From a virus, in IMG/VR virus record IMGVR_UViG_3300037391_000010, positions 32,001 to 96,000 of that record: a stretch of DNA of 64,000 nt, one strand, 5' to 3'. A program made the position numbers and the translations under genes. Positions 2,216 through 58,101 of the stretch are shown one piece after another; position 1 is the stretch's first letter; each line of letters begins with the position of its first letter. The notes beneath the pieces were generated by a model. It ran no database searches and had not been told where the DNA came from. It worked only from the letters and a program-made list of their open reading frames with translations.

Positions 2216-3175
2216 ATGGCAAACCTTTCTCGTACACAACAGCAGACGGCTATGCTCGGTCAGTTACTCAAGACCGCTGGTGGTCGTCAGAAACTTGCGG
2301 CTTCGTTGGGACCATCCCTCCGTCGTCGTCGTGACTATATGAGCATTGCTCGCAAGGCTCTTATGGTTGAAACTCTTCCCGATGGCGCTCTGCCCATCTA
2401 CGATAAGGAATTCGATGTAAGCGCGATGACTGTGGGCTCGACCCCCGGCTCGTCCTTCGTTGAAGCCTTTGTGGTAGGTGAAGAAGGCGGCGACATCGTG
2501 CGCGTCACCAAGCCAAAGCGCGTCACGGTTCCGACGTTTGAAATCGTGTGCAACCCGATGATTCCGATCACGCAGATCAAGGAACGTCGTTTCGATCTCG
2601 TCGCTCGTTCACTCAACCTTGCAAAGGCTGAAGTAGGCGCAGCGGAAGATGGTTACGTGTTCAACCTGTTTGACGGCGTTGCGGCAGGCGCAGTCGGCCA
2701 TCCACCCAACGATCCGGTTTACAACCCCGACATCGCCATCAATGCTCCCATCGACATCAACTCGTTGGCAGACGGCTTTGGTCAGGTTGCACGCCACGAT
2801 CTGTCGGTTGCTTTCATCTTCTTCAATCCGCGTGACTACACGGACCTGTTGAAGTGGACGCAGCAAAACATCGACCGTGAAACACAGCGCAAGCTGTTGA
2901 AGACGGGCGTCATGGGCTATCTATGGGGCGCAACGCTCCTCCAGTCTCGTAAGGTCGGCTACGGCTGCATCTACATTCTGGCGGACGCTGAGTTCCTCGG
3001 CGTAATCCCAGAACGTATTCCGTTGACCGTGATGTCTGCCGACCGTCCTGACCTCCGTCAGATCGGTTTCAGCATCTTCGAGAACTTGGGCTTCTTGGTG
3101 TTCAACCCATCAGGTGTCCAGCGTCTCACAGTCAATGGCCGCTTCAACGCGACCGCCAACTACGGCGAGAACTAA
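2216..3175 (+). CDS. Major capsid protein (HK97-like fold; by recall resembles the Bxz1-type myovirus MCP family)
   Basis: 319 aa, strong SD, strongly biased codons, pattern GRQKLAASL...ETLPDGALPIYD...RVTVPTFEI...GYLWGA, followed by a terminator. Confidence 0.85.
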   Translation: MANLSRTQQQTAMLGQLLKTAGGRQKLAASLGPSLRRRRDYMSIARKALMVETLPDGALPIYDKEFDVSAMTVGSTPGSSFVEAFVVGEEGGDIVRVTKPKRVTVPTFEIVCNPMIPITQIKERRFDLVARSLNLAKAEVGAAEDGYVFNLFDGVAAGAVGHPPNDPVYNPDIAINAPIDINSLADGFGQVARHDLSVAFIFFNPRDYTDLLKWTQQNIDRETQRKLLKTGVMGYLWGATLLQSRKVGYGCIYILADAEFLGVIPERIPLTVMSADRPDLRQIGFSIFENLGFLVFNPSGVQRLTVNGRFNATANYGEN

Positions 3176-42173: not shown

Positions 42174-44105
42174 ATGGCAGACGAGAAGAAACCGTACAGC
42201 AGCATTGTTGATGCATTCTTGGACGACCGCGAGCCCGAATGGAAGGACCTCGGCTTGAAGGACGCACAGGACTCGGGCGAGGAACAATTGGATCGCTCTC
42301 ACCAGTACGTCGATAAAGAGTTCATGGATGAGATCGCGGAATCCGCCTCCCACCACACTCCTCTGTGGCCTGCTCGCACTGGCTCTGCCTCGAAGAATGC
42401 TCAGCGAGACAGCCTTGAGCGTGCGCGTGGCACCCACTTAGATCGCATGGCAGCCAAGGATCAACATTTCAGCGGCGTCGGCGGTTCGGATCAGAATTGG
42501 CGTGTGCAGGCAACCCAACATCCAGAAGACTACAGCACGAAACTAGGCGACGACGATTCGTTGTTTGCCGAGGTCACGGAGACACTGGAATCGGCAGCCT
42601 CCACGGGCAAGGTTGAGAAGAAGAATGTGTCGGACGGACAGGTTTTGAAGTACGTCCACGATCTGCTCAATCAGGGTATGTCGCCTTCGAAGATCGCCGC
42701 CAAGCTGAAGAAGCTGGCTGAGATCGAGTTGTTCAATCACCAGATGGCGACTCAATACCTGCAAGAGAACGCAGGGTTGGTAGGTATGGCGTTCCTCGAA
42801 CCCAACACCTACATGGACAAGAATTCACCGACTTATGAACGAGAGAAGCACGGCAGTTCGAGCAACGAATGCGTAGCGCAGAAGACGGCATGGGACAAGG
42901 CTGGTATTAAGCCCCGAGCGGCATCCGTAAAGCAGATCAGTGCGTGCGAAGGATGCCAGTATTTCTCAAAGAATGGCAACGTTAAGTCCTGTGGTGTGTA
43001 TCACTTACCAGTGGTAGCAAACACCAAGGAGCTTACACCCATCGTGAATAAGCTCACGGCGGGCGTGCCGAACAAGCAGAAGCGGGCAGCATTGGTTCAG
43101 ATCGCTAACGGCAACGATGGCACCAAGGTTGGCTCTATGCCCCTTGCTCCGAAGTCAAGCTCCTCCATTTCCCGGCACCCGAGTCTGGGCGGCGTGGAAG
43201 CGCAGGCAAAGCGTGTGGGCCGCCAGATTGCGGCTGACTTCGACTCTTCGCACATCGCGGCGTTACACGAGAAGGGTCACTCACTGGCGGTTATCGCTCG
43301 TGCGGCTGAAAAGCGGTACGGTGCATTTGCAGCAGGCAAGGCAGTACGCGAGTTTGTAGGTAGCCTGCGACCGAACGTCAACGGACAGATTGTCATTGCG
43401 AAGGCTGATGCGGAGTTCCTCGCAAAGGCAGGACTGCATAATCAGAAGATCGTGGCAGGTGCAAAGTGTGCATCCTGTGCGACACACTCAGTAGTAGTGC
43501 AGAAGCACAAGTCGGCGTCGAATCCGAATTACGCCTCCCGTGTTCCGCACGCAGGGTTCCACGAGAGCAATCCCGATCAGGTACGCCACGCACATCGTGC
43601 GGCTGCACCTGAACTTGATGCCAGCGTCATCGAGCGGTATCACAAGAAGGGTCACTCGATGGAGAAGATTTACAAGCAGGCAGCGGCCAAGTTCGGCACC
43701 GCTCAGGCAAGCAAGGCCGTGAAGGAATTCATCGCCAGCCTGAAGCGTAAGCCGATCAAGGTTGCGTTGAGCCAGATCGACTGCACGTTCCTCAAGAACA
43801 AGCTCGCCGATCACAATCCAATTATCGGAGCACACAAGTGTGGCTCTTGCACGTATCGCAAGGGAATGCATTGCGGGCTCACGGGCGGAACTCTTTTGAG
43901 TTTCCCGGGTATGGACAAAACATCGTCCAACCACAAGGTCGGGGAAGGTGCGCCAGAGGATGGGCGTACCATTCTTGCCGAGTTTGACCTGATGCCGAAT
44001 AGCGGGCGTCCGGGCGACACAAAGATGGCCGACATCGATATGAATCCTCCTGCACGTCAAGACGTTCAGATAGGTAGCTCGTTTGAGCTAGGAGACATAG
44101 AGTAA
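42174..44105 (+). CDS. Cys-rich putative internal head protein with a duplicated helical unit
   Basis: Repeat H(E/K)KGHS...YG/FG...A-x-KAV(R/K)EF...GA-x-KC-x-SC x2; CxxC-x-C clusters. Confidence 0.65.
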   Translation: MADEKKPYSSIVDAFLDDREPEWKDLGLKDAQDSGEEQLDRSHQYVDKEFMDEIAESASHHTPLWPARTGSASKNAQRDSLERARGTHLDRMAAKDQHFSGVGGSDQNWRVQATQHPEDYSTKLGDDDSLFAEVTETLESAASTGKVEKKNVSDGQVLKYVHDLLNQGMSPSKIAAKLKKLAEIELFNHQMATQYLQENAGLVGMAFLEPNTYMDKNSPTYEREKHGSSSNECVAQKTAWDKAGIKPRAASVKQISACEGCQYFSKNGNVKSCGVYHLPVVANTKELTPIVNKLTAGVPNKQKRAALVQIANGNDGTKVGSMPLAPKSSSSISRHPSLGGVEAQAKRVGRQIAADFDSSHIAALHEKGHSLAVIARAAEKRYGAFAAGKAVREFVGSLRPNVNGQIVIAKADAEFLAKAGLHNQKIVAGAKCASCATHSVVVQKHKSASNPNYASRVPHAGFHESNPDQVRHAHRAAAPELDASVIERYHKKGHSMEKIYKQAAAKFGTAQASKAVKEFIASLKRKPIKVALSQIDCTFLKNKLADHNPIIGAHKCGSCTYRKGMHCGLTGGTLLSFPGMDKTSSNHKVGEGAPEDGRTILAEFDLMPNSGRPGDTKMADIDMNPPARQDVQIGSSFELGDIE

Positions 44106-44656: not shown

Positions 44657-47600
44657 ATGGCTCAGAGCGGAAACACAGTCGCACTCAAGTCTTTCCAGTC
44701 ATTCATGGTGAACGATGGTCTTCTGTCGAAGGCTGTCGAAGCGATCAAGGCTGGCGAGAAGGAAGCCCGTAGTTCGGGCAACGTACAGTCCTTCGAAGTT
44801 TTCTACAAGGGCTTCCGTCAGAACATTGCCATCGGTCGTATCTACATCGTCCCCCCTTCCGTCGCCGACAAGAAGGGTCAGGATTTCCCGACCGCCCTGC
44901 TCTATGGCTGCCTCGTCCGCACCTTTGGTGGTGAGGAAATGGGCGACCTGATCTCTCACAAAATCGGTGATACGGAGTGGGATGAATATTCTCAGGCATC
45001 CTACGCATCAATCAAAGAAGAGTTGTTCGGCACCGAGGATGGCAAATTCGCTTCCCTCATCCTGTACGCCCCCAACTGGGTCAACAAGCGCGAATATCAG
45101 GGTTTCCAGTTCCCGAAAGACGACAACCAGCTTTCGAACCTGACCCGCCACGTGATCTTCAGTTCGTACTTCGACCCACGTCTGTCCAGCGCGTTCGACG
45201 CCCTGATGACCGATGTGGAAACGTCCAAGTTCGATGTAACCGACATCACGCCGAAGCTGAACCACCCCGCGTTGGCTGAGAACCCGTTGAAAGAGTTCCC
45301 GTTGCTGACCAAGGAGGGCTCGAAGAAAAAGCCTCGCCTCGGCCTGACCTTCAAGACCGCCGACGAAGTTACCAAGGAAGTGCTCGAACCTCAGGAGATG
45401 GATGTATTCGACTCTTTGGATCAGGCTCTCCGCAACAGCCTCCTGCCGAGCGGCACCAAGGGCGTTGAAGACGCTTCCGAGGGCAAGGCTCCGACAAAGG
45501 GCGAAGTTGTCCCGCGTCTCGCGGCTGTCGAATGCGACAAGTGCGAAGGTGACGGCTGCAAGTTCTGCAACAAGGGTGTCAAGAAAGGTTCCGCCACGGC
45601 GGTATTCGAGACCCCGATCACGAATGTGGGCCCCGGCACCGAAGCTCACGACGAAGCTAATCAGCGCACCGAAGGCTATAAGGCTGAGAAGGACACGCCG
45701 AAGACTGTTATCAACAGCGCACCAATCGGCATCGCTCTCGACGAGACTGGCGTACCACGCCGTGCTGAGGAAGAGCGTAAGGAAAAGTCCGCCACAACCA
45801 AAGTAGCACATGGCTACATCGCTTTCTACGGCGGGCGGCGTGTGGAAATCCACGCTGACTCCCTCTATGGGGCGAAGCTGAAAGCCATCGAGATGTTGAA
45901 GGTTCCGAAATCCAAGCAGGGCTTGCTCGCTGTTGAGCTTGCCGAGAAGGACGGAGAACAGGTCACCACGACGATCACTTCCGCCGACAAGCAGGCGAAG
46001 CGCGTCGAGGGTCTCACTTGTACGGGGGATGTCGAACGTCTCGCGGCACAAACTAAGAAGGGTGATCTAAGCGCATCCGCTAGTGCAGCTTTTGATGAAG
46101 TTCGCACATCGGGCAGTGGAAAGGCTTTGGATGAACACAAAGCTCGTATGAGAGAGTACGCCGCCAGCATGGGTCAGGACAATCAGGCTCATCACGCAGT
46201 AGCCGACCACAAGAAAGAGATTGCCGCAGGTAAGCACGGGCCGACTCCGCTGTCGATCTCCTCTTCGAAGCACAAGATCGCCTATGTTTCTCACGTTCCG
46301 GGTCACACTAACTCCAAAGGCGAAGCTGCTCCATGGGTTATCAAGCAGCACGACACGGACAAGATTCTCGAAAGTTTCAAGTCCGAAGGGGCTGCCAAAG
46401 AGGGCTTGAAGAACATGGAATCCCACAAGGGTTCCGCCGAGAACGACCCTCAGGCTGTTCGCGATCACATCAAGAAGAACGTCAGTCAGGCTCGTCAGGG
46501 TCAGGACGCTTTGAAGGATCACCACGCATCCTTCGACGCCGCCAAGTGGGGCGGACTGGGCAAGAAGCAGGCTTCTTCCCTGTGGGTTGGTACTGCCAAG
46601 AAGGTTGCCGCTGACTTCGACAACTTCACCCGTGGTTATATCGAGACCGCTCTGTGGTCTTCGAATGATGAGTCCGATCCAAGCGGCGGACAGCCGTTGG
46701 ATCAGAACTACGATATCCGCGATCTATCGCCGTCCTGCTTGAAGGCGATGAGCGAGGATTGTGCACAGTTCCAAGCGGAGAACGCAGAGCTTTTGGCTGC
46801 GGCATCCGAACAGGATGGTCAGGACGATTTCCGTCAGGGCAATGATTTCTGGCTCACCCGCTGCGGTCATGGTGCGGGCTACTGGGATGGCGATTACCCG
46901 ACAACGGGCGATGGCTTGACCGAGGCTTCCAAGGCTTGGGGCAACGTGGACATTTACGTCGGTGACGATGACATGATTTACCAGTTCGGAGCAGAAGACG
47001 CTGGCGAACGTGACCTCGGACAGGATCAAAAGGGTGGGCAGGTTCCGCCCGTGATCTCCTCCAAGAAAGCGTCCAAGAAGACCTCCTCGCAAAACGATGC
47101 GTCCTACATTGCCAGTTTGATTGGCGGTGGGTTTGGCGGCGAAGACTACGATGCTCGTTCGCAGCACTCCCGCACGGCTGCTCAGAAGCGTGAGGAAGAG
47201 ATGGCTCGTAAGTATTCCTCTCAGCGTAAGAAGTTCGCCGACGTTCCTCAGGACATCGACGATATCTGGTCTGAGACGATGGAAGACATGGGGCCTGCGC
47301 CTGAGATCAGACTTCCGGGCGAAAGCAAGGACAACGAAAAGTCCACCACGGGGGAACACGAGATTGAAGCTCCCGAGATGAGCGCGGATTCACGAAGCGA
47401 CGTTCCCGAGCAGGTCAAGGGCGATCAGGAAGAGCCGACCGTGGAGGTTGAAGAGGCTCTTGAGAACGACACCACCAAGTCCGAAGAGGACGAGCCGAGC
47501 ACTGGCGAAGGTGGGGCATCGGCAGACTCCGAGGAAACTTCGTCCGAGGGCGAATCTGAAGAGAAGTCCGAGGGTGATTCCAAGTCCGAATGGGCGAAGA

Positions 47601-50572
47601 ACCGCACCAAGGGCAAGTCCGAAAAGAAGGACGAGCCGAAGGAAGAAGAATCCAAGACGGCGGGCCGCAACGCCAGACCACGCGAGCGCGAGCGTGTAAA
47701 GTGCGACCAGTGTGAGATGCTGAGTATCAACGGTACGGCGACCCACGAAACGGGCTGCCCAAACCAGAATTCCCGCTGGGATGCTGACCGACAGGATTGG
47801 GTAAAGCAGCGTCGTTGCGGCGAATGCGGCATGGACGTTGACGCCGATGATCCGTGTTGTTCTGCGGAACCTGACTTCGACAACGGTTACGACGAAAACG
47901 ATGAGCATTTTGGTGGGCTCGATGCTATCCTCGCTGACGACACCGATGCAGTAATGGAGCAGGCGGAAGAAGCCGCAACAGCAGCCCCCGCAATATTCTA
48001 TGAGTGCGGAGCCTGCGGCGGCGTGCACCCGTCCTTGGAGACTTCCGAAAGGCTCGGTCTCGGTTGGAACGGTGATTGTCGTGATGAGGTTGGTCACTTC
48101 GAAGACAGCGACGTTCCTTACGGAGACAACACTCAGTTCGTCACCTTGGAAGAGCAGATGGCTCCAGACTTCGATGACGCGATTCTGGCGTCTAAGACTG
48201 CGGACTATGCCGAGGGCGACCTTGAAACTTACTTCGACGAAGGAAAGACGGCGGATTACGCCGAGGGCGATCTCGAAACCTACTTCGATGAGGGGAAGAC
48301 GGCAGACTACGCCGAAGATGATTTTGCATCTTACTTCGGAGAGGAAAAATCGGCGGGACGTTCCACCACACCGAAGTACGTCATTCGTATTCCGGGTTCG
48401 ACCGATGCGGCATGGAATGTGACTGGTTACGGACAACAGCGTGGTGCGGGCCAGCCAAACCAAGCGAACCTCGCACGGTACATGGAAGCTCTCTTGAAGA
48501 GCATGGAACCGGGCGGGCACAACGAGCATTTGGTGGGTCATTTCGACCCATCCGAAGCTGCGGTTTATCGCAACGACGGCACCTACAAGAACCCGTTGGC
48601 TACATGGTCGAAGGGTGAAGCGAAGCAGGGTGCGGATGTCTCGGGCGATTTCTCGGAAGCGCATTCCGAGGTTGACAGCCCAGACACCGTGGATCAGGAC
48701 ATCAAGCAGCCGACCGAATCGGTAGGCGAAGCTGGTAAGAGAAAGAACGCTGATGTGGCGGAAGAAACCAAGGAAGAGCGGGCGAAACGTCTGGAAGATC
48801 AGCGTCAGCGCGATGCTCGTGAACTGACACGTCGCAAGGCGGCTGACATCTCGGGGGACATCTCTGAGGCTGAGTCGAACACGGAAAGCCCTGACGGGGT
48901 GGACGCCGACATTAAGCAGCCTACGGTTTCGGTTCCCGAAGCGGCACGCAAGAACGCTAAGGTGGGATTCACGTTCAACGGACAGCATCGTGAAGCTTCC
49001 TTTAGCGATCTCACACAGGCGGGGAAGTTCATAGCGGTAGCATCGGCCAAGTTTGGAAAGTTGGCTGGTGACTGGACAATAAATGCAGCCGATGACGACG
49101 ATGCGGCAGAGGATCAGTCCGCTGATCCGAAGAAGCCCGCTAAAGCTGAACCAGCCGACGCAGAACCCGCTGAAGCTGAAGACAAACCAGCAGATGACGC
49201 GGCACCCGATGCTGAAGCTGAGGACAAGCCAACCGAACAGACTGATGAAACAAAGGGCAAGAACAAGCCCGCTGAGACACCTGCGGCGGATGCGAAAGCT
49301 CCAGCAGCGGCTCCCGCTGCGCCTGCGGCAGCACCAGCAGTTCCAGCAGCACCAGCCCCAGCAGCCGTAGCAGCCCCAGCGGGTGCGGGTGGAAACGGAA
49401 CTTCGGAAACTTCTGGCAACGAAACATCGACCGAAACTGGCGGCTCAAGTCCGGGTGGTGCATCAACTGGCGGCGTAGGTAGCGGCATGGGTGGTGCGGG
49501 TACTGGCGGGGCTGGCACAGGCGGGGCCGCTACTAGCACGGGCACAGGCGGTGCAGGCACAGGCGGAACCGTGAGCATCGCACCAACAAGCACGAACTCG
49601 GCGGGCGGTGATGAGGGCGGCGAAGGTGGTGAAGGTCAGGGCGGCGGGGCGAAAGACAAAACCCCAACCATCATCATTTACAACGGCGGCACGGGCGGTG
49701 CATCTACCGTCGATACTGACAGCGGTTCTGGACCGGGCGGCGATGGGCCGGGTTCTGACGGAACTGGCGGCACGGGCGAAGGCTCGGGTGGTGGTGGAGG
49801 CGGCGGCGGTGGACGTGGAACTCCACGCAACCCCGAACAGGCAGCGGATGCCGTATCTCCGGGCGTTGATAGCGATAATAGGCAGCAAGGTGATTTGGCT
49901 AAGCCACAGGGCAACCAATCAAAGGGTAAGCCTTTGGCAACGAAGCCTGAATCACAAGACGATCAGTTAAAAGGCAATGATGAGCCTTCGGCAGAGAAAC
50001 CAGAACTTCGTGGTGACGCACCTGTGAAGCCACAGAAGCCTGAGCCTCCGCACGAGGACGAGGCCGACACGAAAGAAGCTGCCGCAGGAATGCCAGCCGA
50101 AGTCGGGGAATTCCCGTATGTCGAAACGCTGGTAGGTATGGGCTGGAGCGACGAGGGCGATCCGGGGCACTTCATGCTCAATGATAGTCGCGTCGAAGTC
50201 CTGACGTACACCGATGGCTACGAAGTATACGTAGACGGCGAACTGTACGAGTCGGGCGATAACGTGGATGAACTTCAGAACACGCTGGAACTCGTTGCCG
50301 AACTTGGCACCGATGCATTAAATGCACATCAGGCAGCCGACCCCAGCGGGTATGCTCCGATGGATGCCGAATCTGCTCCCGAGAGTGATAAGGGCGGCGG
50401 TGGGGGCGGTCTTGCGGGACTAGCGGACATGGCCGAAGAGGTAGCACCCCTGTTAGCCTCTGAAAAAGAGGCATGTGCGGGCTACGGTGATGAAGAAGAC
50501 GAAGAACGTCCATTCGATCTCGGTATCGGTGATCTGGCGGACATAGTTGTGGAGACGGAAGATGCCAATTAG
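44657..50572 (+). CDS. 1971-aa cassette polyprotein with (K/R)xA-delimited modules
   Basis: Globular N-domain, then modules such as HGYIAFY..., DFDNFTRGYIETALWSS...DFWLTRCGHGAGYWD, CDQCEMLSING, plus acidic repeats and a Gly-rich linker. Confidence 0.75.
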   Translation: MAQSGNTVALKSFQSFMVNDGLLSKAVEAIKAGEKEARSSGNVQSFEVFYKGFRQNIAIGRIYIVPPSVADKKGQDFPTALLYGCLVRTFGGEEMGDLISHKIGDTEWDEYSQASYASIKEELFGTEDGKFASLILYAPNWVNKREYQGFQFPKDDNQLSNLTRHVIFSSYFDPRLSSAFDALMTDVETSKFDVTDITPKLNHPALAENPLKEFPLLTKEGSKKKPRLGLTFKTADEVTKEVLEPQEMDVFDSLDQALRNSLLPSGTKGVEDASEGKAPTKGEVVPRLAAVECDKCEGDGCKFCNKGVKKGSATAVFETPITNVGPGTEAHDEANQRTEGYKAEKDTPKTVINSAPIGIALDETGVPRRAEEERKEKSATTKVAHGYIAFYGGRRVEIHADSLYGAKLKAIEMLKVPKSKQGLLAVELAEKDGEQVTTTITSADKQAKRVEGLTCTGDVERLAAQTKKGDLSASASAAFDEVRTSGSGKALDEHKARMREYAASMGQDNQAHHAVADHKKEIAAGKHGPTPLSISSSKHKIAYVSHVPGHTNSKGEAAPWVIKQHDTDKILESFKSEGAAKEGLKNMESHKGSAENDPQAVRDHIKKNVSQARQGQDALKDHHASFDAAKWGGLGKKQASSLWVGTAKKVAADFDNFTRGYIETALWSSNDESDPSGGQPLDQNYDIRDLSPSCLKAMSEDCAQFQAENAELLAAASEQDGQDDFRQGNDFWLTRCGHGAGYWDGDYPTTGDGLTEASKAWGNVDIYVGDDDMIYQFGAEDAGERDLGQDQKGGQVPPVISSKKASKKTSSQNDASYIASLIGGGFGGEDYDARSQHSRTAAQKREEEMARKYSSQRKKFADVPQDIDDIWSETMEDMGPAPEIRLPGESKDNEKSTTGEHEIEAPEMSADSRSDVPEQVKGDQEEPTVEVEEALENDTTKSEEDEPSTGEGGASADSEETSSEGESEEKSEGDSKSEWAKNRTKGKSEKKDEPKEEESKTAGRNARPRERERVKCDQCEMLSINGTATHETGCPNQNSRWDADRQDWVKQRRCGECGMDVDADDPCCSAEPDFDNGYDENDEHFGGLDAILADDTDAVMEQAEEAATAAPAIFYECGACGGVHPSLETSERLGLGWNGDCRDEVGHFEDSDVPYGDNTQFVTLEEQMAPDFDDAILASKTADYAEGDLETYFDEGKTADYAEGDLETYFDEGKTADYAEDDFASYFGEEKSAGRSTTPKYVIRIPGSTDAAWNVTGYGQQRGAGQPNQANLARYMEALLKSMEPGGHNEHLVGHFDPSEAAVYRNDGTYKNPLATWSKGEAKQGADVSGDFSEAHSEVDSPDTVDQDIKQPTESVGEAGKRKNADVAEETKEERAKRLEDQRQRDARELTRRKAADISGDISEAESNTESPDGVDADIKQPTVSVPEAARKNAKVGFTFNGQHREASFSDLTQAGKFIAVASAKFGKLAGDWTINAADDDDAAEDQSADPKKPAKAEPADAEPAEAEDKPADDAAPDAEAEDKPTEQTDETKGKNKPAETPAADAKAPAAAPAAPAAAPAVPAAPAPAAVAAPAGAGGNGTSETSGNETSTETGGSSPGGASTGGVGSGMGGAGTGGAGTGGAATSTGTGGAGTGGTVSIAPTSTNSAGGDEGGEGGEGQGGGAKDKTPTIIIYNGGTGGASTVDTDSGSGPGGDGPGSDGTGGTGEGSGGGGGGGGGRGTPRNPEQAADAVSPGVDSDNRQQGDLAKPQGNQSKGKPLATKPESQDDQLKGNDEPSAEKPELRGDAPVKPQKPEPPHEDEADTKEAAAGMPAEVGEFPYVETLVGMGWSDEGDPGHFMLNDSRVEVLTYTDGYEVYVDGELYESGDNVDELQNTLELVAELGTDALNAHQAADPSGYAPMDAESAPESDKGGGGGGLAGLADMAEEVAPLLASEKEACAGYGDEEDEERPFDLGIGDLADIVVETEDAN
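48194..48346 (+). repeat. Three tandem 51-bp units encoding KTADYAE(G/D)D(L/F)-x-x-YF-x-E(G/E)
   Basis: Units 48194-48244, 48245-48295 and 48296-48346; units 1 and 2 have identical protein with synonymous differences. Confidence 0.95.
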
Positions 50573-53500
50573 CATTGAGAGGTTGCAGGCTGCCGCTCGC
50601 AGGGTTGGGGCGGACATCATGCACAGTGACGACGATCTGTCTCAGAAGCTCGAAACGGCGACCCCCTCGGCGGCGGAAGCTGGGCCGAGCCACGATGAGT
50701 TGGTTGAGAATTCCCACGACGAAAGCGGGATCAGCGTAATCGACGGAGAAATCCGTCCGCCTGAACGTCAGAATGTTTCAGCCGTCCGCGATGCCATTGA
50801 AGCGCAAGCTGAGATGGAAATCGGTAAATCCATCGGAGAGAAAGAAGAAGAGATGGAGGCTCGTGGCGACGGCCCTTACGGAGACAAGGAAGTCAAGGAC
50901 ACCACGACAACGACCATTGATGCTAAGCCCGGAAAGCAGATCATCATCAACATCGCAAAGGAAGTAGATCGAGGAATTTCGGTCGCTCCAACGCAAGCTA
51001 AGGGGATCGGCGGCGAGAAACAGCATCCGAGAGAAAATACCTCAAGCAATGGTATGTTTGGGGGTACGAGCTTGTCAGCAACCCCGAATTTTGAAAAGCA
51101 CTCCGAGGAGGGCACTCCAAGTCCCGATGTAGTTGCTCGGGTTCGCGGTCAGTACACATCTGGCATGGGGCGCAAGTCCTGCATGGAGCACTTCAAGATC
51201 ACCGAACAGCAGCTTGATGACATCCTCAGCGGGAAGTACGGCAAGGGAAAGATCGCCACATACCACGAACTCAAGGCGGCGTTTACCAAGAACGCACGTT
51301 TGTTCAACGAGACGGAACTCAGGCTGGCTGGGCAGGAATACCTGCACATGGTTCGTACCGCCGCGATTGGCGTGGCGCAGGGTCAAGACGAGCAGGGGTT
51401 CCACATGCTGCTGAACATGAATGGGCGTGAGTATGTCCTTCGTGGGGCGGATGCAGACAGTTTCCGTAAGGAGTACGCCGCGATTCCAAAACCCGAAGTG
51501 GCAGTCAACAAGCTTGTCGAAAAGTATCTATGGAAGATGCAGCCGTACCAGAAGCAGACCATTCAGCACCCACCGTCTGAAACGAAGCAAGACTCCAACA
51601 GTCAGGCTCTTCGTCGTCAGCGGTCAGAAGGATTGGCGGATGCCGATGCGTACTGGGGCGGCAAGGAAAAGGGACAGAACGATTACAAGCGGTACATGAC
51701 GCAGCACGCCTCAACCAAAATAGCCGCTGAGTCATACGCAGAGTACCAGAAGTTGGTACAGGAGCGTAGCCAGATCATCTCTCAGAACCGTAGCCGTCAG
51801 ATGAAAGGCCAGCCGCCCGCACCAGTGCCGCCGAAGCCCCAGCCGCCGATGGTTCCAGTGGCGTATGCGGCAGATGGGACGTATGAGGGTCGGCTGCAAG
51901 ACCCAGCAGATTGTCCGCCGGGTTGCAAGGTGAAGTGGGAGCCCGCTAAGGGAGCCAGCATGATGACCTTGGCTAAGATTGCAGGCGACTATTTTGGCTA
52001 CGATGACTGGATCACAGGTCACACTGCCCTGATGATTAACAATGACTCGGCTGGACTTACGACGCTGCACAACTTGACTCGCAGTGCCCTGAAGAAGAAA
52101 ATGACACCGAAGCAGTTGGCGGGTCAGTTTGCAAAGTTCTTCAAGAAGTTCGGCGAACAGAGCAAGAAGTTCTACGCGGAGAACGCTGAGAATGCCCGTG
52201 GGGAACGCGGGAAGCATGAGCGTGAGCAACTCGAAGGTGTGGTTAAGGCACCGAGCGGCGACAAGGCTCGCGATTTTGTCGATAGTCTGACCAACATGTG
52301 GTACGATGCGGGTGGACAGAGCGATTGGGAACAGCCGTCGAATGAAGTCAACTGGGAAGAGATCGCCACTGCGGAGATGGAATCCGAGCGTGCGGAGAAC
52401 CCAGACAAGTATCCGCAAACGAACAAGGAAGATGATAAGTTCATGGAAGGTGTGGGGATGAAAATGGAATCACTCAGAACAGCAACGGCAGTATTAGCAA
52501 GGGTCGCCGCCATGAGCGTAGGCGACAAACATCAGCTTCGCATCGCCATTGACTCCCTCAAGATGAACCCAGCTATGCTGGGCGTCATGGGTGGGCCAAG
52601 CAGAGAAGAAGCTTTGGAAATCTTAGCTAAGCACGATTTACGCTGGGACGAAACGGGGGGTAGGGTGATAAAAGCAAACGATAAGAAAGCTGCCGCTGGC
52701 TGTGACTGGCAAACTGAGTACGGAATGGGCGCTGGCGATGCTCGCTGTGGGCAGCCGACCACTGGCAATTCTCCGTGGTGTGCCGAGCACATTCAAGAGG
52801 CGAAGGACAACTACCCGCAACACGCCCTCCCAACCAAGAACGGCGGCGAGGGTGCGGTTAAGACCCCCGAAGAGATTGAAAAGGAAGCTGGCTTCAATTT
52901 TTTCTTCCCCGGTCAGGTACTCCGCGAAGTCGCTCCCGAGATGCAGCACGAACTCGTAGACTACCCCAACCAGACCAACACCCCGATGCAGTATCCTGAC
53001 ATCGTTGGCGACAGGGAAGAGGTTCCAGAAGAGATGGCTCTTGCAGCCGCTCTCGATGGCGCTCTCGACACAACTATCATCGCCTATGTGAGCACCAGTC
53101 CCGCCGCTGCCGCTGGTATCGGTCGCGATGGCAAGTCCGAAGTGCTTGAAGGTGCCCCGCTCCGCAAGGAAAACGATATCCGTGGTTTGATGTTCACGGA
53201 CGAGTTCTACGGTCAGCAAAGCGGCGTACCGGGTGCGGCATTTGCTTCGCAGGCCAAAGCCGCAGGATTTGCACGTCCGGGTTCGGCGTTCAAATACCTG
53301 AAGAGCCTCAAGCTGGGCAAGACCGCAGGTGCGGACGAAGCCAAGCAATTCTCGATCTTCCTTCAGTACGTTTGCGGTGAGATCGCGGCTACTCTCGTGG
53401 CGCTGTTCAAGGTCACCTATCGTCCGATGCTGAACCAAGTTCCGGGCAAGGGTGAGATTCAACTGGCTCAGGTCGAACAGCCGCAGGGTTTGTCGAGCTT

Positions 53501-53717
53501 TAACCTCTACAATCAGGCGAGCCGTGTGAAGTACCTTATGAACAAGCTCACCGACAGCGAGATCAAGGACGCTATCAATAGCTCCTCGGCTCAGGGTGCG
53601 GTGTGGCACGAGGGCGAAGAGGGCGGCTACGTGTACGAAGTCTTCGTCCGTATCGACGACATCGACACCGAGAGCTTGATCGCGACATATAGCTTTATTT
53701 GCGGCACGAAGGAATAA
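50562..53717 (+). CDS. ~1050-aa cassette polyprotein/internal head protein
   Basis: ATG at 50562 after GGAG; KIA, KNA, RTA, RVA, KAA, KEA and KTA junctions. Confidence 0.7.
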   Translation: MPISIERLQAAARRVGADIMHSDDDLSQKLETATPSAAEAGPSHDELVENSHDESGISVIDGEIRPPERQNVSAVRDAIEAQAEMEIGKSIGEKEEEMEARGDGPYGDKEVKDTTTTTIDAKPGKQIIINIAKEVDRGISVAPTQAKGIGGEKQHPRENTSSNGMFGGTSLSATPNFEKHSEEGTPSPDVVARVRGQYTSGMGRKSCMEHFKITEQQLDDILSGKYGKGKIATYHELKAAFTKNARLFNETELRLAGQEYLHMVRTAAIGVAQGQDEQGFHMLLNMNGREYVLRGADADSFRKEYAAIPKPEVAVNKLVEKYLWKMQPYQKQTIQHPPSETKQDSNSQALRRQRSEGLADADAYWGGKEKGQNDYKRYMTQHASTKIAAESYAEYQKLVQERSQIISQNRSRQMKGQPPAPVPPKPQPPMVPVAYAADGTYEGRLQDPADCPPGCKVKWEPAKGASMMTLAKIAGDYFGYDDWITGHTALMINNDSAGLTTLHNLTRSALKKKMTPKQLAGQFAKFFKKFGEQSKKFYAENAENARGERGKHEREQLEGVVKAPSGDKARDFVDSLTNMWYDAGGQSDWEQPSNEVNWEEIATAEMESERAENPDKYPQTNKEDDKFMEGVGMKMESLRTATAVLARVAAMSVGDKHQLRIAIDSLKMNPAMLGVMGGPSREEALEILAKHDLRWDETGGRVIKANDKKAAAGCDWQTEYGMGAGDARCGQPTTGNSPWCAEHIQEAKDNYPQHALPTKNGGEGAVKTPEEIEKEAGFNFFFPGQVLREVAPEMQHELVDYPNQTNTPMQYPDIVGDREEVPEEMALAAALDGALDTTIIAYVSTSPAAAAGIGRDGKSEVLEGAPLRKENDIRGLMFTDEFYGQQSGVPGAAFASQAKAAGFARPGSAFKYLKSLKLGKTAGADEAKQFSIFLQYVCGEIAATLVALFKVTYRPMLNQVPGKGEIQLAQVEQPQGLSSFNLYNQASRVKYLMNKLTDSEIKDAINSSSAQGAVWHEGEEGGYVYEVFVRIDDIDTESLIATYSFICGTKE

Positions 53718-53767: not shown

Positions 53768-54292
53768 ATGAGTAGCCTACCGCAGTATAAAGGTAAAACT
53801 CGTCAGCAGTACATGAGTGAGTGGCATAACAAGTATCGTGCATATTGGAGCACGCACGATGCGTATGTTGAAACCAAGTCCAAAATTTGCGTGTACTGTG
53901 AAAAGGAAAAGCCGAGCGTTGCTTTTTCCAAGGCAAACACGAACAAGGATGGGTTACAGGCATACTGTATCGACTGTCTCAAGCAGTGGCACATCGATGA
54001 TCCAACACGTCAAATGCTGCTCAACGCCCGTGCCCGAGCCCGTCGTTTGGGAATTGAATTCGCTCTTGATGCAAAGGATATAGTAATTCCGAAAGTTTGC
54101 CCCGTTTTGGGTATCCCGCTTGTCGTGAGATCAAAGGGGAAAAACAACTCTCCGAGTCTGGATAGGAAGGATAACTCTAAGGGATACACCTCAGATAACA
54201 TTCGAGTGATCTCGTGGCGGGCAAATGATATCAAGGGGAACGCCACTGTCGCTGAGCTAGAAAAAGTGTTAGAATACATGAAGGAAGCATGA
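53768..54292 (+). CDS. HNH homing endonuclease
   Basis: CxxC...CxxC finger; CPVLGIPL...SPSLDRKDNSKGY-x-x-DNIRVISWRANDIK. Confidence 0.85.
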   Translation: MSSLPQYKGKTRQQYMSEWHNKYRAYWSTHDAYVETKSKICVYCEKEKPSVAFSKANTNKDGLQAYCIDCLKQWHIDDPTRQMLLNARARARRLGIEFALDAKDIVIPKVCPVLGIPLVVRSKGKNNSPSLDRKDNSKGYTSDNIRVISWRANDIKGNATVAELEKVLEYMKEA

Positions 54293-54981: not shown

Positions 54982-55379
54982 AAGTTCCCGTCCCGATTGA
55001 AGCCCTCCTCATCGAGCACGCGAAAGTTAGTAGGGCTTGGTTAAAACGTCGGTTGATACGAGAGGGGTTGTTAATCGACCATTGCTACATTTGCGGCTTG
55101 ACGGAATGGTTGGGCAAGCCCATTGTGCAACGTCTCGATCACATCAACGGTGTCAATGACGATTATAGGCTCGAAAATTTGCGGTTGCTTTGTCCGAACT
55201 GCGACAGTCAGACGCCCACGTACTGCGGTCGAAACATAGAACGTCGGGCGGAAGTTAACCACTGTGAGTGCGGGAAAGCAATAGAACGTCGTTCGACCCA
55301 GTGTAAAAGCTGTGCTGGGAAAACGGTTTATATCAACAATTTTACTCGCGTAGCTCAATTGCAGAGCACTTCATTCTAA
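54978..55379 (+). CDS. HNH endonuclease overlapping the tRNA 5' half
   Basis: CYICG...LDHINGVNDDYRLENLRLLCPNC; ATGA-coupled start at 54978. Confidence 0.85.
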   Translation: MKVPVPIEALLIEHAKVSRAWLKRRLIREGLLIDHCYICGLTEWLGKPIVQRLDHINGVNDDYRLENLRLLCPNCDSQTPTYCGRNIERRAEVNHCECGKAIERRSTQCKSCAGKTVYINNFTRVAQLQSTSF

Positions 55380-55418
55380 ACGAAGGGGTTGCGGGTGTAA
55401 GTCCCGTCGCGGGTTCCA
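55344..55418 (+). tRNA. tRNA with a CUA anticodon (amber suppressor type), CCA encoded
   Basis: ACTCGCG/CGCGGGT acceptor stem, GCTC/GAGC D stem, CTTCA-TTCTAAA-CGAAG anticodon arm, GCGGG-TGTAAGT-CCCGT T arm, T73 + CCA. Confidence 0.8.
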
Positions 55419-55968: not shown

Positions 55969-58101
55969 ATGGCTGACAAGAAAGTCAAAAGTACAACTTG
56001 GACAAAGCTCGCAGACAACCTTCTGCCTGACGCGACAAAGAAGATCAATGCCATTGACTTCATTGAAGGCCCGGGCGGAACTGGTATCGTCCTGCGTCCC
56101 GTTCAGCGTGTTCTCGTAAAGTCCCTCTTCGCCGTCCCATTCGATTACCGCCCCAAGTGGGCAGACGCCATCGAAAACTGGGGCATGGTGGAGATGTGGA
56201 ATCCATTCCGCGATGAACTGCTCCGCACAGTCACGGAAGAAGAGTACCTCCACATCGTTCACGAAGAAGGTCGCTGTAACGTTGGGGATTGGCGAGACAT
56301 ACCTGAAAGAGGCTTCAACGAAGCTGTTGTCTTCTGCGGTCGTCGTGGCGGTAAATCGGAAGTCGTCGCCGCCATCGCCGCATACAAACTCTACCTCACC
56401 CTGTGCATCAATTCGCCGCAGAAGTTTTTCGGCTTGGCCGAGGGCTCCAAGATCGACTTCACCTTTTTGGCTCAGGACGAAACGGGTGCAGGCCGACTGT
56501 TCCAAAAGCTTCAGGCCGCAGTCACCCGTGCAACGTGGTTCCACACCTACATCAAAGACAGCAACGTCAAGAACCTGACATTCACTTGCGAGGCTGACCG
56601 TCACCACAAGGTCGATGCCAAGCCGTCGATTCAAGTCGTATCGTTGCCTTGCACAACGAACGCCGTTCGTGGCCCTTCGTCTCTCTTCCTTGCCCTCGAT
56701 GAGTTCGCTCACTTCCGTTCCGAAGTGGGCTCCACGTCTGAAGATATGTATGTGGCCGCTACGCCTGCCGCTGGCGACTTCCACCATGAAGAAAACAAGC
56801 CCGTCATCCTTGATGAGGCTGATTTTCATCAAGCGGGCGATTTCAAGCACGTGGAACCAGTCGGTACGGAAGGCAAACTTGAATTTCAGGACTCATTGAT
56901 TCTGAGCATCTCGTCGCCATTGAAGAAAGTCGGTATGATGTACGACCTCTACCGCATGGCGATGGAGGACGGCATTAACGAGGACAACCCGACGTTCGCC
57001 CTGAGTTGTTCGTCGGCGGAAATGAACCCGAAGTTAAAGGCGGGGTTCTTGCGTGACAAAGCCCGTAAAAATCCTCTCACGTTTAAGGCTGAGTACGGCG
57101 GGCAGTTCTTGGAATCTACGGAATCGTTCGTTCGATCCATCGACATCATGACCTGTACGGATGTTACCGCATGGGATGTCAAAACCGAACCCACATTTGG
57201 CGTCCTTGCGCCCGCATCGGGAGCAATCGTCCGTCAAAACTGCGTGCGATTCGACGGTAATCAGGTGGGCTACAACTACTTCTGGGGTCTCGATCTGGGC
57301 GGCGTGAACGTCACCGATCCTGACAATACCCGACCCGATGGTTGCGCGTTGGCGATTGGGCACCTTGAGGTTCGTCAATCGCAGAACCCAACGCCCGGAT
57401 TGACTCACGGTTTTCACTTAGTGTTCGACTACATTGATCGTATGATTGCAGGTGAAAGGTTCGATGGCCCGGGGGTCGATATCCAAACTCCCGAGGGTGT
57501 GAAGTACACGGATTTCCAACTCCTGCCCGTGAAGGACATCCTGCTCTGGCTGAAGGAAATGAACAAGGTTCTCCCGTGCTACAAAGGATCAACCGATCAA
57601 CACGCAGGTCGTCAGCTTATCACCTTGTTGGAACAGAATGAAGTCAACAACATGGAACTGGTAAACTTGACTCCCGCAGTCAACTCGGAAATGGCGTATG
57701 CGCTGCGTTCGTTCATCAACGATCACACTGCCAACTTCCCGTATGTGCCCAAGTTCATCCATGAAATCAAGATGGTTGAGACCGACGTGGTTGCCAAATA
57801 CCGCATTCGCGTCCACGCCCCTCTGGAAAAGGGAGCCCACGACGACATGGTGGATGCTGTCATGCTCGTCGCTATGCAGGTTCAGACATGGCTAATTGAC
57901 GAGGGTCACCTGAAGATGGACCCAACGGGGCAGAGCCTTGTCATGCAGCGTCAGCAGGCACTCCCGAAGAAGCCGATTATCAACATAGATGCCATGAGTA
58001 TGAGTGACTTAAAGGCAGCGGAACGTGAATATCAGATGACCAAATTCAAGTTCGGCGGCGGCAGCCACCGTGTTGCCCGAGGTAGAGGACGCCGTTTCTA
58101 G
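55969..58101 (+). CDS. terL: Terminase large subunit
   Basis: Walker A GRRGGKS, Walker B FLALDEFAHF, coupling ISSP, AEYGGQF, nuclease GLDLG and HDDMVDA. Confidence 0.93.
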   Translation: MADKKVKSTTWTKLADNLLPDATKKINAIDFIEGPGGTGIVLRPVQRVLVKSLFAVPFDYRPKWADAIENWGMVEMWNPFRDELLRTVTEEEYLHIVHEEGRCNVGDWRDIPERGFNEAVVFCGRRGGKSEVVAAIAAYKLYLTLCINSPQKFFGLAEGSKIDFTFLAQDETGAGRLFQKLQAAVTRATWFHTYIKDSNVKNLTFTCEADRHHKVDAKPSIQVVSLPCTTNAVRGPSSLFLALDEFAHFRSEVGSTSEDMYVAATPAAGDFHHEENKPVILDEADFHQAGDFKHVEPVGTEGKLEFQDSLILSISSPLKKVGMMYDLYRMAMEDGINEDNPTFALSCSSAEMNPKLKAGFLRDKARKNPLTFKAEYGGQFLESTESFVRSIDIMTCTDVTAWDVKTEPTFGVLAPASGAIVRQNCVRFDGNQVGYNYFWGLDLGGVNVTDPDNTRPDGCALAIGHLEVRQSQNPTPGLTHGFHLVFDYIDRMIAGERFDGPGVDIQTPEGVKYTDFQLLPVKDILLWLKEMNKVLPCYKGSTDQHAGRQLITLLEQNEVNNMELVNLTPAVNSEMAYALRSFINDHTANFPYVPKFIHEIKMVETDVVAKYRIRVHAPLEKGAHDDMVDAVMLVAMQVQTWLIDEGHLKMDPTGQSLVMQRQQALPKKPIINIDAMSMSDLKAAEREYQMTKFKFGGGSHRVARGRGRRF

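Follow-up and report, generated by a model that had tools for sequence, protein, structure and literature searches.

Tandem acidic cassettes between candidate protease sites in a giant modular protein of an uncultured soil jumbo phage

Introduction

The prohead proteases of several large phages recognize short substrate tags of the format P3-x-P1 (L/I-x-E for T4 gp21, A/S/G-x-E for phiKZ gp175 and SPN3US gp245), a format also seen in the herpesvirus tag V/L-x-A. In T4, gp21 breaks core proteins down to small peptides, which then exit the prohead (PMC9958956). The SPN3US protease gp245, which cuts at A-x-E, cleaves propeptides at more than one position and trims off its own C-terminal tail (PMC10052503). 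In T4, phiKZ, and SPN3US, propeptides with several sites are fragmented and small peptides leave the head (PMC9958956, PMC10052503). Here, we describe a candidate tag of the same format, K-x-[A/G/S], in gpB, a giant protein encoded in a 64,000-nucleotide stretch of viral DNA (the window; bases 32001-96000 of the 155-kb IMG/VR record IMGVR_UViG_3300037391_000010, the completeness of which is estimated at 48%). In gpB, the tag bounds an array of tandem 17-residue acidic-aromatic units (DY units) and a second acidic element, D[IV]SGDxSEAKSE, that we call the hallmark element. We favor, with a probability of about one-half, the reading that both are disordered acidic cassettes bounded by protease sites, either spacers or propeptides, in a polyprotein that is packaged in the head and would be cut at maturation, as suggested by sequence comparison, structure prediction, and analogy. 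As in the T4, phiKZ, and SPN3US substrates, a short tag is common to the capsid protein, scaffold, protease termini, and putative internal or ejected proteins. Unlike in those phages, the candidate tag is Lys-x-small and not x-x-Glu; the sites lie between many modules of ∼2000-residue proteins and not only in an N-terminal propeptide; and the acidic pieces between sites are conserved and tandemly repeated.

In its architecture, gpB resembles the polyvalent proteins described by Iyer, Burroughs, Anand, de Souza, and Aravind in 2017 (PMC5512222), which are very long, contain many unrelated small domains, are encoded among late or structural genes, and, by prediction, are packaged together with the DNA and delivered with it. 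The modules of gpB come and go in orthologues, two of them match stand-alone phage families, and the gene lies near that of the terminase. The hallmark domains of polyvalent proteins (MPTase, ArdC, SNF2, methylases, and others) were not found in gpB by Pfam. In addition, unlike polyvalent proteins, gpB would be processed by the head protease at a junction tag and not by an in-built peptidase. Head-protease substrate logic and polyvalent packaged proteins are thus already known (PMC5512222 for the latter). What appears to be undescribed is the occurrence of one Lys-x-small junction tag throughout giant phage proteins, the tandem arrays that conserved acidic cassettes form between these tags, and the hallmark element.

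The closest relatives of the window phage are viral contigs of up to 456 kb, and its closest isolate is Tunturiibacter phage Tunturi_5 (PP885688), a 309-kb myovirus from Arctic soil infecting a host of the Acidobacteriota (PMC11924767). The source of the window is an uncultured soil jumbo phage of the Acidobacteriota type. The closest cultured relative of gpB is Tunturi_5 gp350 (L013:9001-12243), whose N-terminal domain shares 42% identity with gpB residues 3-262. Like gpB, gp350 has K-x-A-small junctions throughout and occupies the same genomic place before the terminase. Unlike gpB, it has only 1080 residues and ends in the domain that forms the C terminus of a separate protein here, gpC. 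Because these parts form a single protein in Tunturi_5, gpB and gpC look like one functional unit, which either was split here or became fused in Tunturi_5. No DY units occur in gp350, and its printed sequence showed no D[IV]SGD hallmark element. It is annotated as a "DarB-like antirestriction protein" (PP885688, PMC11924767), an automatic structure-based label that was not reproduced here; no Pfam or PHROG matches to P1 DarB-type methyltransferase or helicase domains were found in gpB.

Results

Two of the tandem DY units agree in peptide and differ in codons

Tandem Repeats Finder reported an array at 48194-48338 (period 51, 2.8 copies, score 174). Its translation confirmed what an earlier note, made from the DNA letters, had described, namely three tandem 17-residue units, each starting with KTA, and a closing KSA (window 48194-48355, gpB residues 1180-1233; Table 1). 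The note had also stated that units 1 and 2 are identical in protein but synonymously different, which is the case: all nine differences between them are at third codon positions, and none changes an amino acid. Nine differing codons out of 17 is approximately what random synonymous codon choice gives. With synonymous sites near random and the peptide fixed, the sequences indicate that the two copies are old, or that selection has favored differences between them in DNA but not in peptide. A tblastn search of the repeat region against 50,697 phage records gave no match.

The DY array is not an assembly artefact, because at least four other metagenomes yielded contigs with exactly the same DNA sequence of the array, and six near-relative protein variants, with lengths that differ elsewhere, all have three DY units. 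L003-L006 were considered as an independent replicate of the 9:0 pattern and rejected, their DNA there being identical to that of the window.

Table 1. Positions in the window of gpB, its parts, and other genes considered
Feature	Positions	Strand	Basis or remark
DY unit 1, KTA + DYAEGDLETYFDEG (residues 1180-1196)	48194..48244	+	repeat finder, translation
DY unit 2, peptide identical to unit 1	48245..48295	+	9 synonymous differences from unit 1
DY unit 3, KTA + DYAEDDFASYFGEE	48296..48346	+	ancestral-looking; sole unit kept in L002 and L007
Closing KSA motif, directly 5' of the GR module	48347..48355	+	translation, module contexts
Hallmark copy 1, KQG-A-DVSGDFSEAHSE...IKQPTESV...KNA (residues 1323-1365)	48623..48751	+	BLASTP, profile
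Hallmark copy 2, KAA-DISGDISEAES...IKQPTVSV...KNA (residues 1394-1434)	48836..48958	+	BLASTP, codon comparison
Upstream Cys-rich module (residues 1003-1182), end ...DFDDAILAS-KTA	47663..48202	+	segmentation at K-x-[AGS]; kept in relatives
Folded mini-domain (GR module), GRSTTPKYVIRIPGS...WSKGEAKQG (residues 1234-1325)	48356..48631	+	AlphaFold2; upstream contexts
Charged helical spacer DVAEETKEERAKRLEDQRQRDARELTRRKAA (residues 1366-1396)	48752..48844	+	AlphaFold2 helix
gpB, 1971-residue modular, very acidic protein	44657..50572	+	open reading frame list, translation; stop TAG
gpB C-terminal tail ...PFDLGIGDLADIVVETEDAN	50504..50569	+	resembles tails of protease and gp643
gpC, 1056-residue downstream partner	50562..53717	+	start overlaps gpB stop
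Major capsid protein	2216..3175	+	phrog_2522, E 3.5e-42
Large terminase	55969..58101	+	phrog_2, phrog_17415, phrog_9

Unrelated acidic pieces occupy the slot of the array in relatives

Where the unit of a tandem repeat is taken to begin is a matter of choice, and that each unit starts with KTA therefore carries no weight by itself. More telling is that the array has N + 1 motifs for its N units. We compared the content of the slot between the conserved ...DFDDAILAS and the conserved GR module (GRxxTPKYVIRIPGS). In the window phage, the slot holds the three DY units. In L002, one DY unit is followed by one unrelated acidic unit that starts with DTADNPANE (the DTADNPANE unit). L007 has the Cys-rich module, one DY unit, a larger module beginning with NYAEGDEF, and one DTADNPANE unit, P0004 has the Cys-rich module and then three tandem 28-residue DTADNPANE units, and P0041 has a single unit, KQG-SEESLDSYFAAE-KTA. 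Every slot piece in these relatives begins right behind K-x-[A/G], and the GR module lies directly behind K-[TSVI]-[AG] (KTA, KSA, KVA, or KIG) in eight of eight distinct contexts. The proposal that K-x-A delimits the cassettes is thus borne out, with unrelated peptides filling the slot between the same bounding motif, which is more exactly K-x-[A/G/S]. The earlier note had said that a repeat phase unrelated to KxA in relatives would count against its idea; the phase was found to be held, which favors it. All three kinds of acidic piece begin with D-[TVIY]-[AS]-[DEG] after the tag. The element K-x-A-DTADNPANE-x-GGEGAI-x-VKT is widespread in the gpB family, single or in tandem (L002, L007, L008, L014 (P0004), and P0008-P0020), and is missing from the window phage.

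The three DTADNPANE units of P0004 share an invariant 12-residue core, KTADTADNPANE, with 7, 3, and 7 synonymous and no non-synonymous differences, and have diverged in protein outside this core. Together with the 9:0 count in the DY units, this upholds the idea of selection on the peptide, of which the P0004 array is an independent replicate. As judged from the sequences, the constrained part in P0004 is the junction and the residues just behind it, not the whole peptide.

These counts bear on the possibility that the units are functionless by-products of slipped-strand or microhomology duplication between AAG-ACN-GCN-GA repeats, the KTA borders being the microhomology. Tandem duplications typically carry N + 1 copies of the recombining microhomology, the DY array has N + 1 motifs for N units, and the slot is clearly an insertion hot spot in the family. 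Such an origin is nevertheless highly improbable, given that units 1 and 2 differ at nine synonymous positions and at none that is non-synonymous, with synonymous sites saturated, that the P0004 array shows the same synonymous-only pattern, and that the copy number is constant in six near relatives that differ in length elsewhere.

Another possibility is a multi-copy precursor, from which cleavage would release bioactive acidic-aromatic 17-mers that stay in the capsid and enter the host as a decoy or nucleic-acid mimic, with copy number setting the dose. Identical peptides do stand in tandem between putative cleavage sites, purifying selection extends over all 17 residues of units 1 and 2, and the copy number is stable at three in six near relatives. 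However, DY units were found in no relatives but the closest, conservation in the independent DTADNPANE array is limited to the junction core, and most small cleavage peptides leave the head in T4 and SPN3US. A disordered 17-mer would also be a poor nucleic-acid mimic. Known nucleic-acid mimics such as Ocr and ArdA are folded surfaces, whereas the DY units, with 17 residues and predicted disorder (predicted local distance difference test, pLDDT, ∼28), do not offer a folded carboxylate scaffold of that type. The copy-number comparison did not back the claim that duplication sets dose: DY occurs three times in the near clade, elsewhere there is one copy or one divergent DY-like unit, and other peptides, including unrelated acidic units, fill the slot. 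We consider this explanation quite unlikely.

In yeast α-factor, neuropeptide prohormones, and multi-core precursors of ribosomally synthesized and post-translationally modified peptides, tandem copies of a short peptide are bracketed by a protease tag. The DY array is similar in that each of its tandem short copies is bracketed by a putative protease tag. Unlike α-factor and prohormone precursors, it would be set inside a capsid and has no secretion signal. It is very doubtful that the DY and DTADNPANE arrays are true peptide precursors, a phage counterpart of prohormone or α-factor processing in which the head protease would make the copies in the capsid, to be injected with the DNA and to act on a host target.

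K-x-[A/G/S] recurs in head-associated proteins

A gene encoding a head maturation protease lies just upstream of the window (genome 27942..28898; phrog_18299, E 2.2e-14), and its product is 62% identical to the annotated protease of Tunturi_5. The Pfam S77 and S78 models, searched against the genome, gave no match for this protease. A phmmer search against PDB sequences returned chance ferritin matches only, which were discarded. The protease core is flanked by K-x-A motifs (KIA, KSA, and KSA before, KMA-KIA after), which a 73%-identical relative keeps, shifted in register by one residue. The adjoining scaffold-like gene has 1.8 K-x-A-small sites per 100 residues. In the capsid protein, K-T-A forms residues 19-21 (bases 2270-2278), ahead of a basic N-arm that reads ...SLRRRRDY.... 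The motif K[TS]A is found at the same place in Tunturi_5 gp334 (KSA) and in a 50%-identical capsid paralogue (KTA) of the complete 456-kb relative. In the latter, this paralogue is a second capsid gene copy (L021/L023, G004:C1:273765-274646) with the N-terminal sequence LL-KTA-GGRQ. By sequence, the same short motif is common to the capsid protein, scaffold, protease termini, and gpB.

In ten head-associated proteins, the motif density was 1.22 per 100 residues versus 0.82 expected from composition (1.5-fold), and in the rest of the genome, it was 0.35 versus 0.38 expected. Within the tag, Thr is enriched 2.9-fold at P2, and Ala, Asp, or Ser ∼2-fold at P1'. Module borders coincide with the motif as well. 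In Klebsiella phage KP2025, a stand-alone homologue of the phrog_1915 module begins exactly at the KVA|A site of gpB. Among orthologues, whole modules are present or absent between K-x-A sites, and 25.8% of indel borders are no more than 5 residues away from a site, versus 14.4% at random (1.8×).

These occurrences have to be weighed against an explanation without cleavage, in which K-x-[AGS] would be a flexible Lys/Ala-rich linker feature or capping motif, and the acidic units uncleaved avidity motifs for a scaffold, capsid, or host partner in the intact giant protein. The modest enrichment of the motif over composition and a conservation of Lys and Ala at the sites that is not clearly above background are consistent with this, as is the packaging of some polyvalent proteins, e.g. 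the N4 virion RNA polymerase, in unprocessed form (PMC5512222). What makes it unlikely is where the motif occurs. It is present at the usual head-protease places (the capsid N terminus, both protease ends, and throughout the scaffold), is invariant before the GR module whatever its upstream neighbor, coincides with the start of the stand-alone homologue, and is absent from tail, fibre, and enzyme genes of similar composition.

Acidic-aromatic strings resembling the DY unit or its flank were seen in gp491 (EDYFDDAVL; genome 23931-25406), in gp554 (DPDYAEH and KTA-DNDDDFYRELEQEG; genome 26305-27969), and in the gpB flank of the DY array (PDFDDAILAS; 48170-48193). The pattern D[YF][AF][DE]x, which was defined post hoc, occurs five times in the head set, with only two occurrences independent of the repeat, and not elsewhere. 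Such strings may represent a common binding motif, for which the independent cases are too few.

The hallmark element is an ancient part of the gpB family

The earlier note had pointed to a second motif-bounded pair downstream of the DY array. This description holds for the tag K-x-[A/G/S] but not for K-x-A, the first copy being preceded by K-Q-G-A, which is K-x-G. Across the family, the element is preceded by K-x-S-A, K-x-G-A, or K-x-A-x, with the Lys always four residues before the conserved Asp, which is why the tag was widened. Nor is the pair a locally duplicated cassette of this phage, as had been proposed; it is an old hallmark element of the family. The two copies are identical at 28 of 43 residues (65%; BLASTP E 4e-17), and 16 of these 28 residues are encoded by different codons. 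When a profile of the D[IV]SGDxSEAKSE element was searched against 1.84 billion representative proteins, only 41 clusters were found, most with two or three copies per protein. In distant family members, it is the only matching part of the queried residues 1040-1480. Sequence comparison therefore indicates that the element is an ancient hallmark of the gpB family. It comes in two flavors, ...SPDTVDxDIKQPTxSV... and ...DYNKxxxADxxxATDTVNPxHFA. The charged helical spacer between the copies is missing from L007 and P0004, where two hallmark elements abut. An EF-hand-like reading of D-x-S-G-D-x-S-E-A-x-S-E was dropped, as the Gly6 and hydrophobic-8 positions do not fit.

Predicted structure and domain content of gpB

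Structure prediction with AlphaFold2 on gpB residues 1102-1434, from an alignment of seven sequences, gave a pLDDT of 27-30 for the DY array, 58-78 for the GR module, and about 30 for the first hallmark element. A single helix at residues 1372-1402 (model residues 271-301) reached about 70, and the second hallmark element 35-42. In this model, the repeated pieces look disordered and the parts between which they lie look folded; the shallow alignment makes this weak evidence.

The only PHROG matches of gpB are to phrog_1915 (residues 651-775) and phrog_19202 (residues 386-430), both families of unknown function. The whole protein matched no Pfam family at E ≤ 0.01, and its parts matched none at E ≤ 1 above the cut-off. 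When scanned separately against Pfam and PHROG, the single modules, the N-terminal domain, and the repeat stretch likewise gave nothing above the cut-off, and the N-terminal domain had no usable match in the ESM Atlas. Full-length relatives of gpB were found on viral contigs of 37-456 kb. The long low-complexity stretch at residues ∼1480-1800 (49100-50070) is rich in Ala, Pro, Gly, and Thr and has short 9-base repeats. Near relatives of gpB span 1792 to 1971 residues with the DY array unchanged, and since the array stays fixed while the length varies, the variation probably lies in this stretch. The last 9 bases of the Cys-rich module are the first KTA of the array.

Discussion

How the cassettes might work

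From the anatomy, conservation, motif distribution, protease gene, and predicted disorder that were observed, we infer packaging and cleavage of gpB, as well as a fate and a role for its peptides. In the favored reading, gpB would be a head-packaged, modular, polyvalent-like protein in which small folded modules are joined by K-x-[A/G/S]. The tag, with Lys at P3 and a small residue at P1, would be the motif at which the phage's own head maturation protease cuts, and the DY units and hallmark elements would be disordered acidic cassettes between cleavage sites. During maturation, it is this protease that would release the folded modules and cut the acidic stretches into 2-4.5 kDa fragments, which, by analogy with T4 and SPN3US, would leave the capsid or remain as counter-ions. 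The conservation of the cassettes argues that they do something before cleavage, and the apparent focus of selection on the junction together with the residues that follow it directly (KTA-D-[YT]-A-[DE]...) suggests the same. Most economically, this job could be docking of the protease or of the basic inner capsid face (N-arm RRRR). Repeating the unit would then raise the number of sites or avidity and not the dose of a product.

Several points weigh against this reading. The head set was chosen partly by eye for motif richness, so that the enrichment is partly circular and only 1.5-fold, and the indel statistic was built on non-independent alignment pairs. Comparison of orthologues gave a mixed picture, Lys and Ala within K-x-A not being consistently better conserved than other Lys and Ala residues. 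The whole DY unit and the 40-residue hallmark element are conserved beyond what a mere spacer would need. The model of residues 1102-1434 rests on only seven sequences, and that of the N-terminal domain (residues 1-236) has a pLDDT of 33 and is unusable. No recognizable packaging domain was found in gpB by the Pfam and PHROG scans, and the terms "mass spectrometry" and "protease" do not occur in the paper on Tunturi_5 (PMC11924767).

If the tag is a protease cleavage code, the mature products of giant proteins could be read from sequence, both here (proteins of 1971, 2002, 5484, and 1056 residues) and across an entire clade of soil jumbo phages. The acidic cassettes would then illustrate the construction and diversification of such polyproteins, with modules and spacers swapped at protease sites. 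Short conserved acidic motifs may also load cargo into the capsid, which would help in engineering large phages to package cargo. The cultured relative Tunturi_5 makes the cleavage idea directly testable.

Protein termini and genomic neighborhood

Similar tails close three K-x-A-rich head-associated proteins, i.e. the protease (LDLGDALMSADL), gp643 (FELGDIE), and gpB (FDLGIGDLADIVV). They are encoded at 50504-50569 for gpB, at window 44040-44102 for gp643, and, outside the window, at genome 28820-28895 for the protease. The tail pattern has five occurrences in the open reading frames of the genome, three of which fall within the last 19 residues of K-x-A-rich head-associated proteins. The shared tail may be a capsid-targeting signal; it recalls LGIGSL, the cargo peptide of encapsulin, and the tail of the HK97 protease.

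The gpB gene ends with TAG at 50570-50572, and the likeliest start of gpC is the overlapping ATG at 50562 (ATGCCAATTAG). Joining of gpB and gpC by amber read-through was considered and rejected, as a TGA lies one codon after the TAG and gpC is in another frame. With the large terminase gene nearby, the gpB locus sits among head and packaging genes. The order 3' of gpB is gpC, an HNH or endonuclease VII-type gene (53768-54292), and the large terminase. The C-terminal sequence encoded by the second of these has a near copy in a 182-residue open reading frame at genome 4616-5164. ARAGORN identified a tRNA with the amber-reading anticodon CUA at window 55344-55418; despite this tRNA, gpB and other long genes stop at TAG and are intact in code 11.

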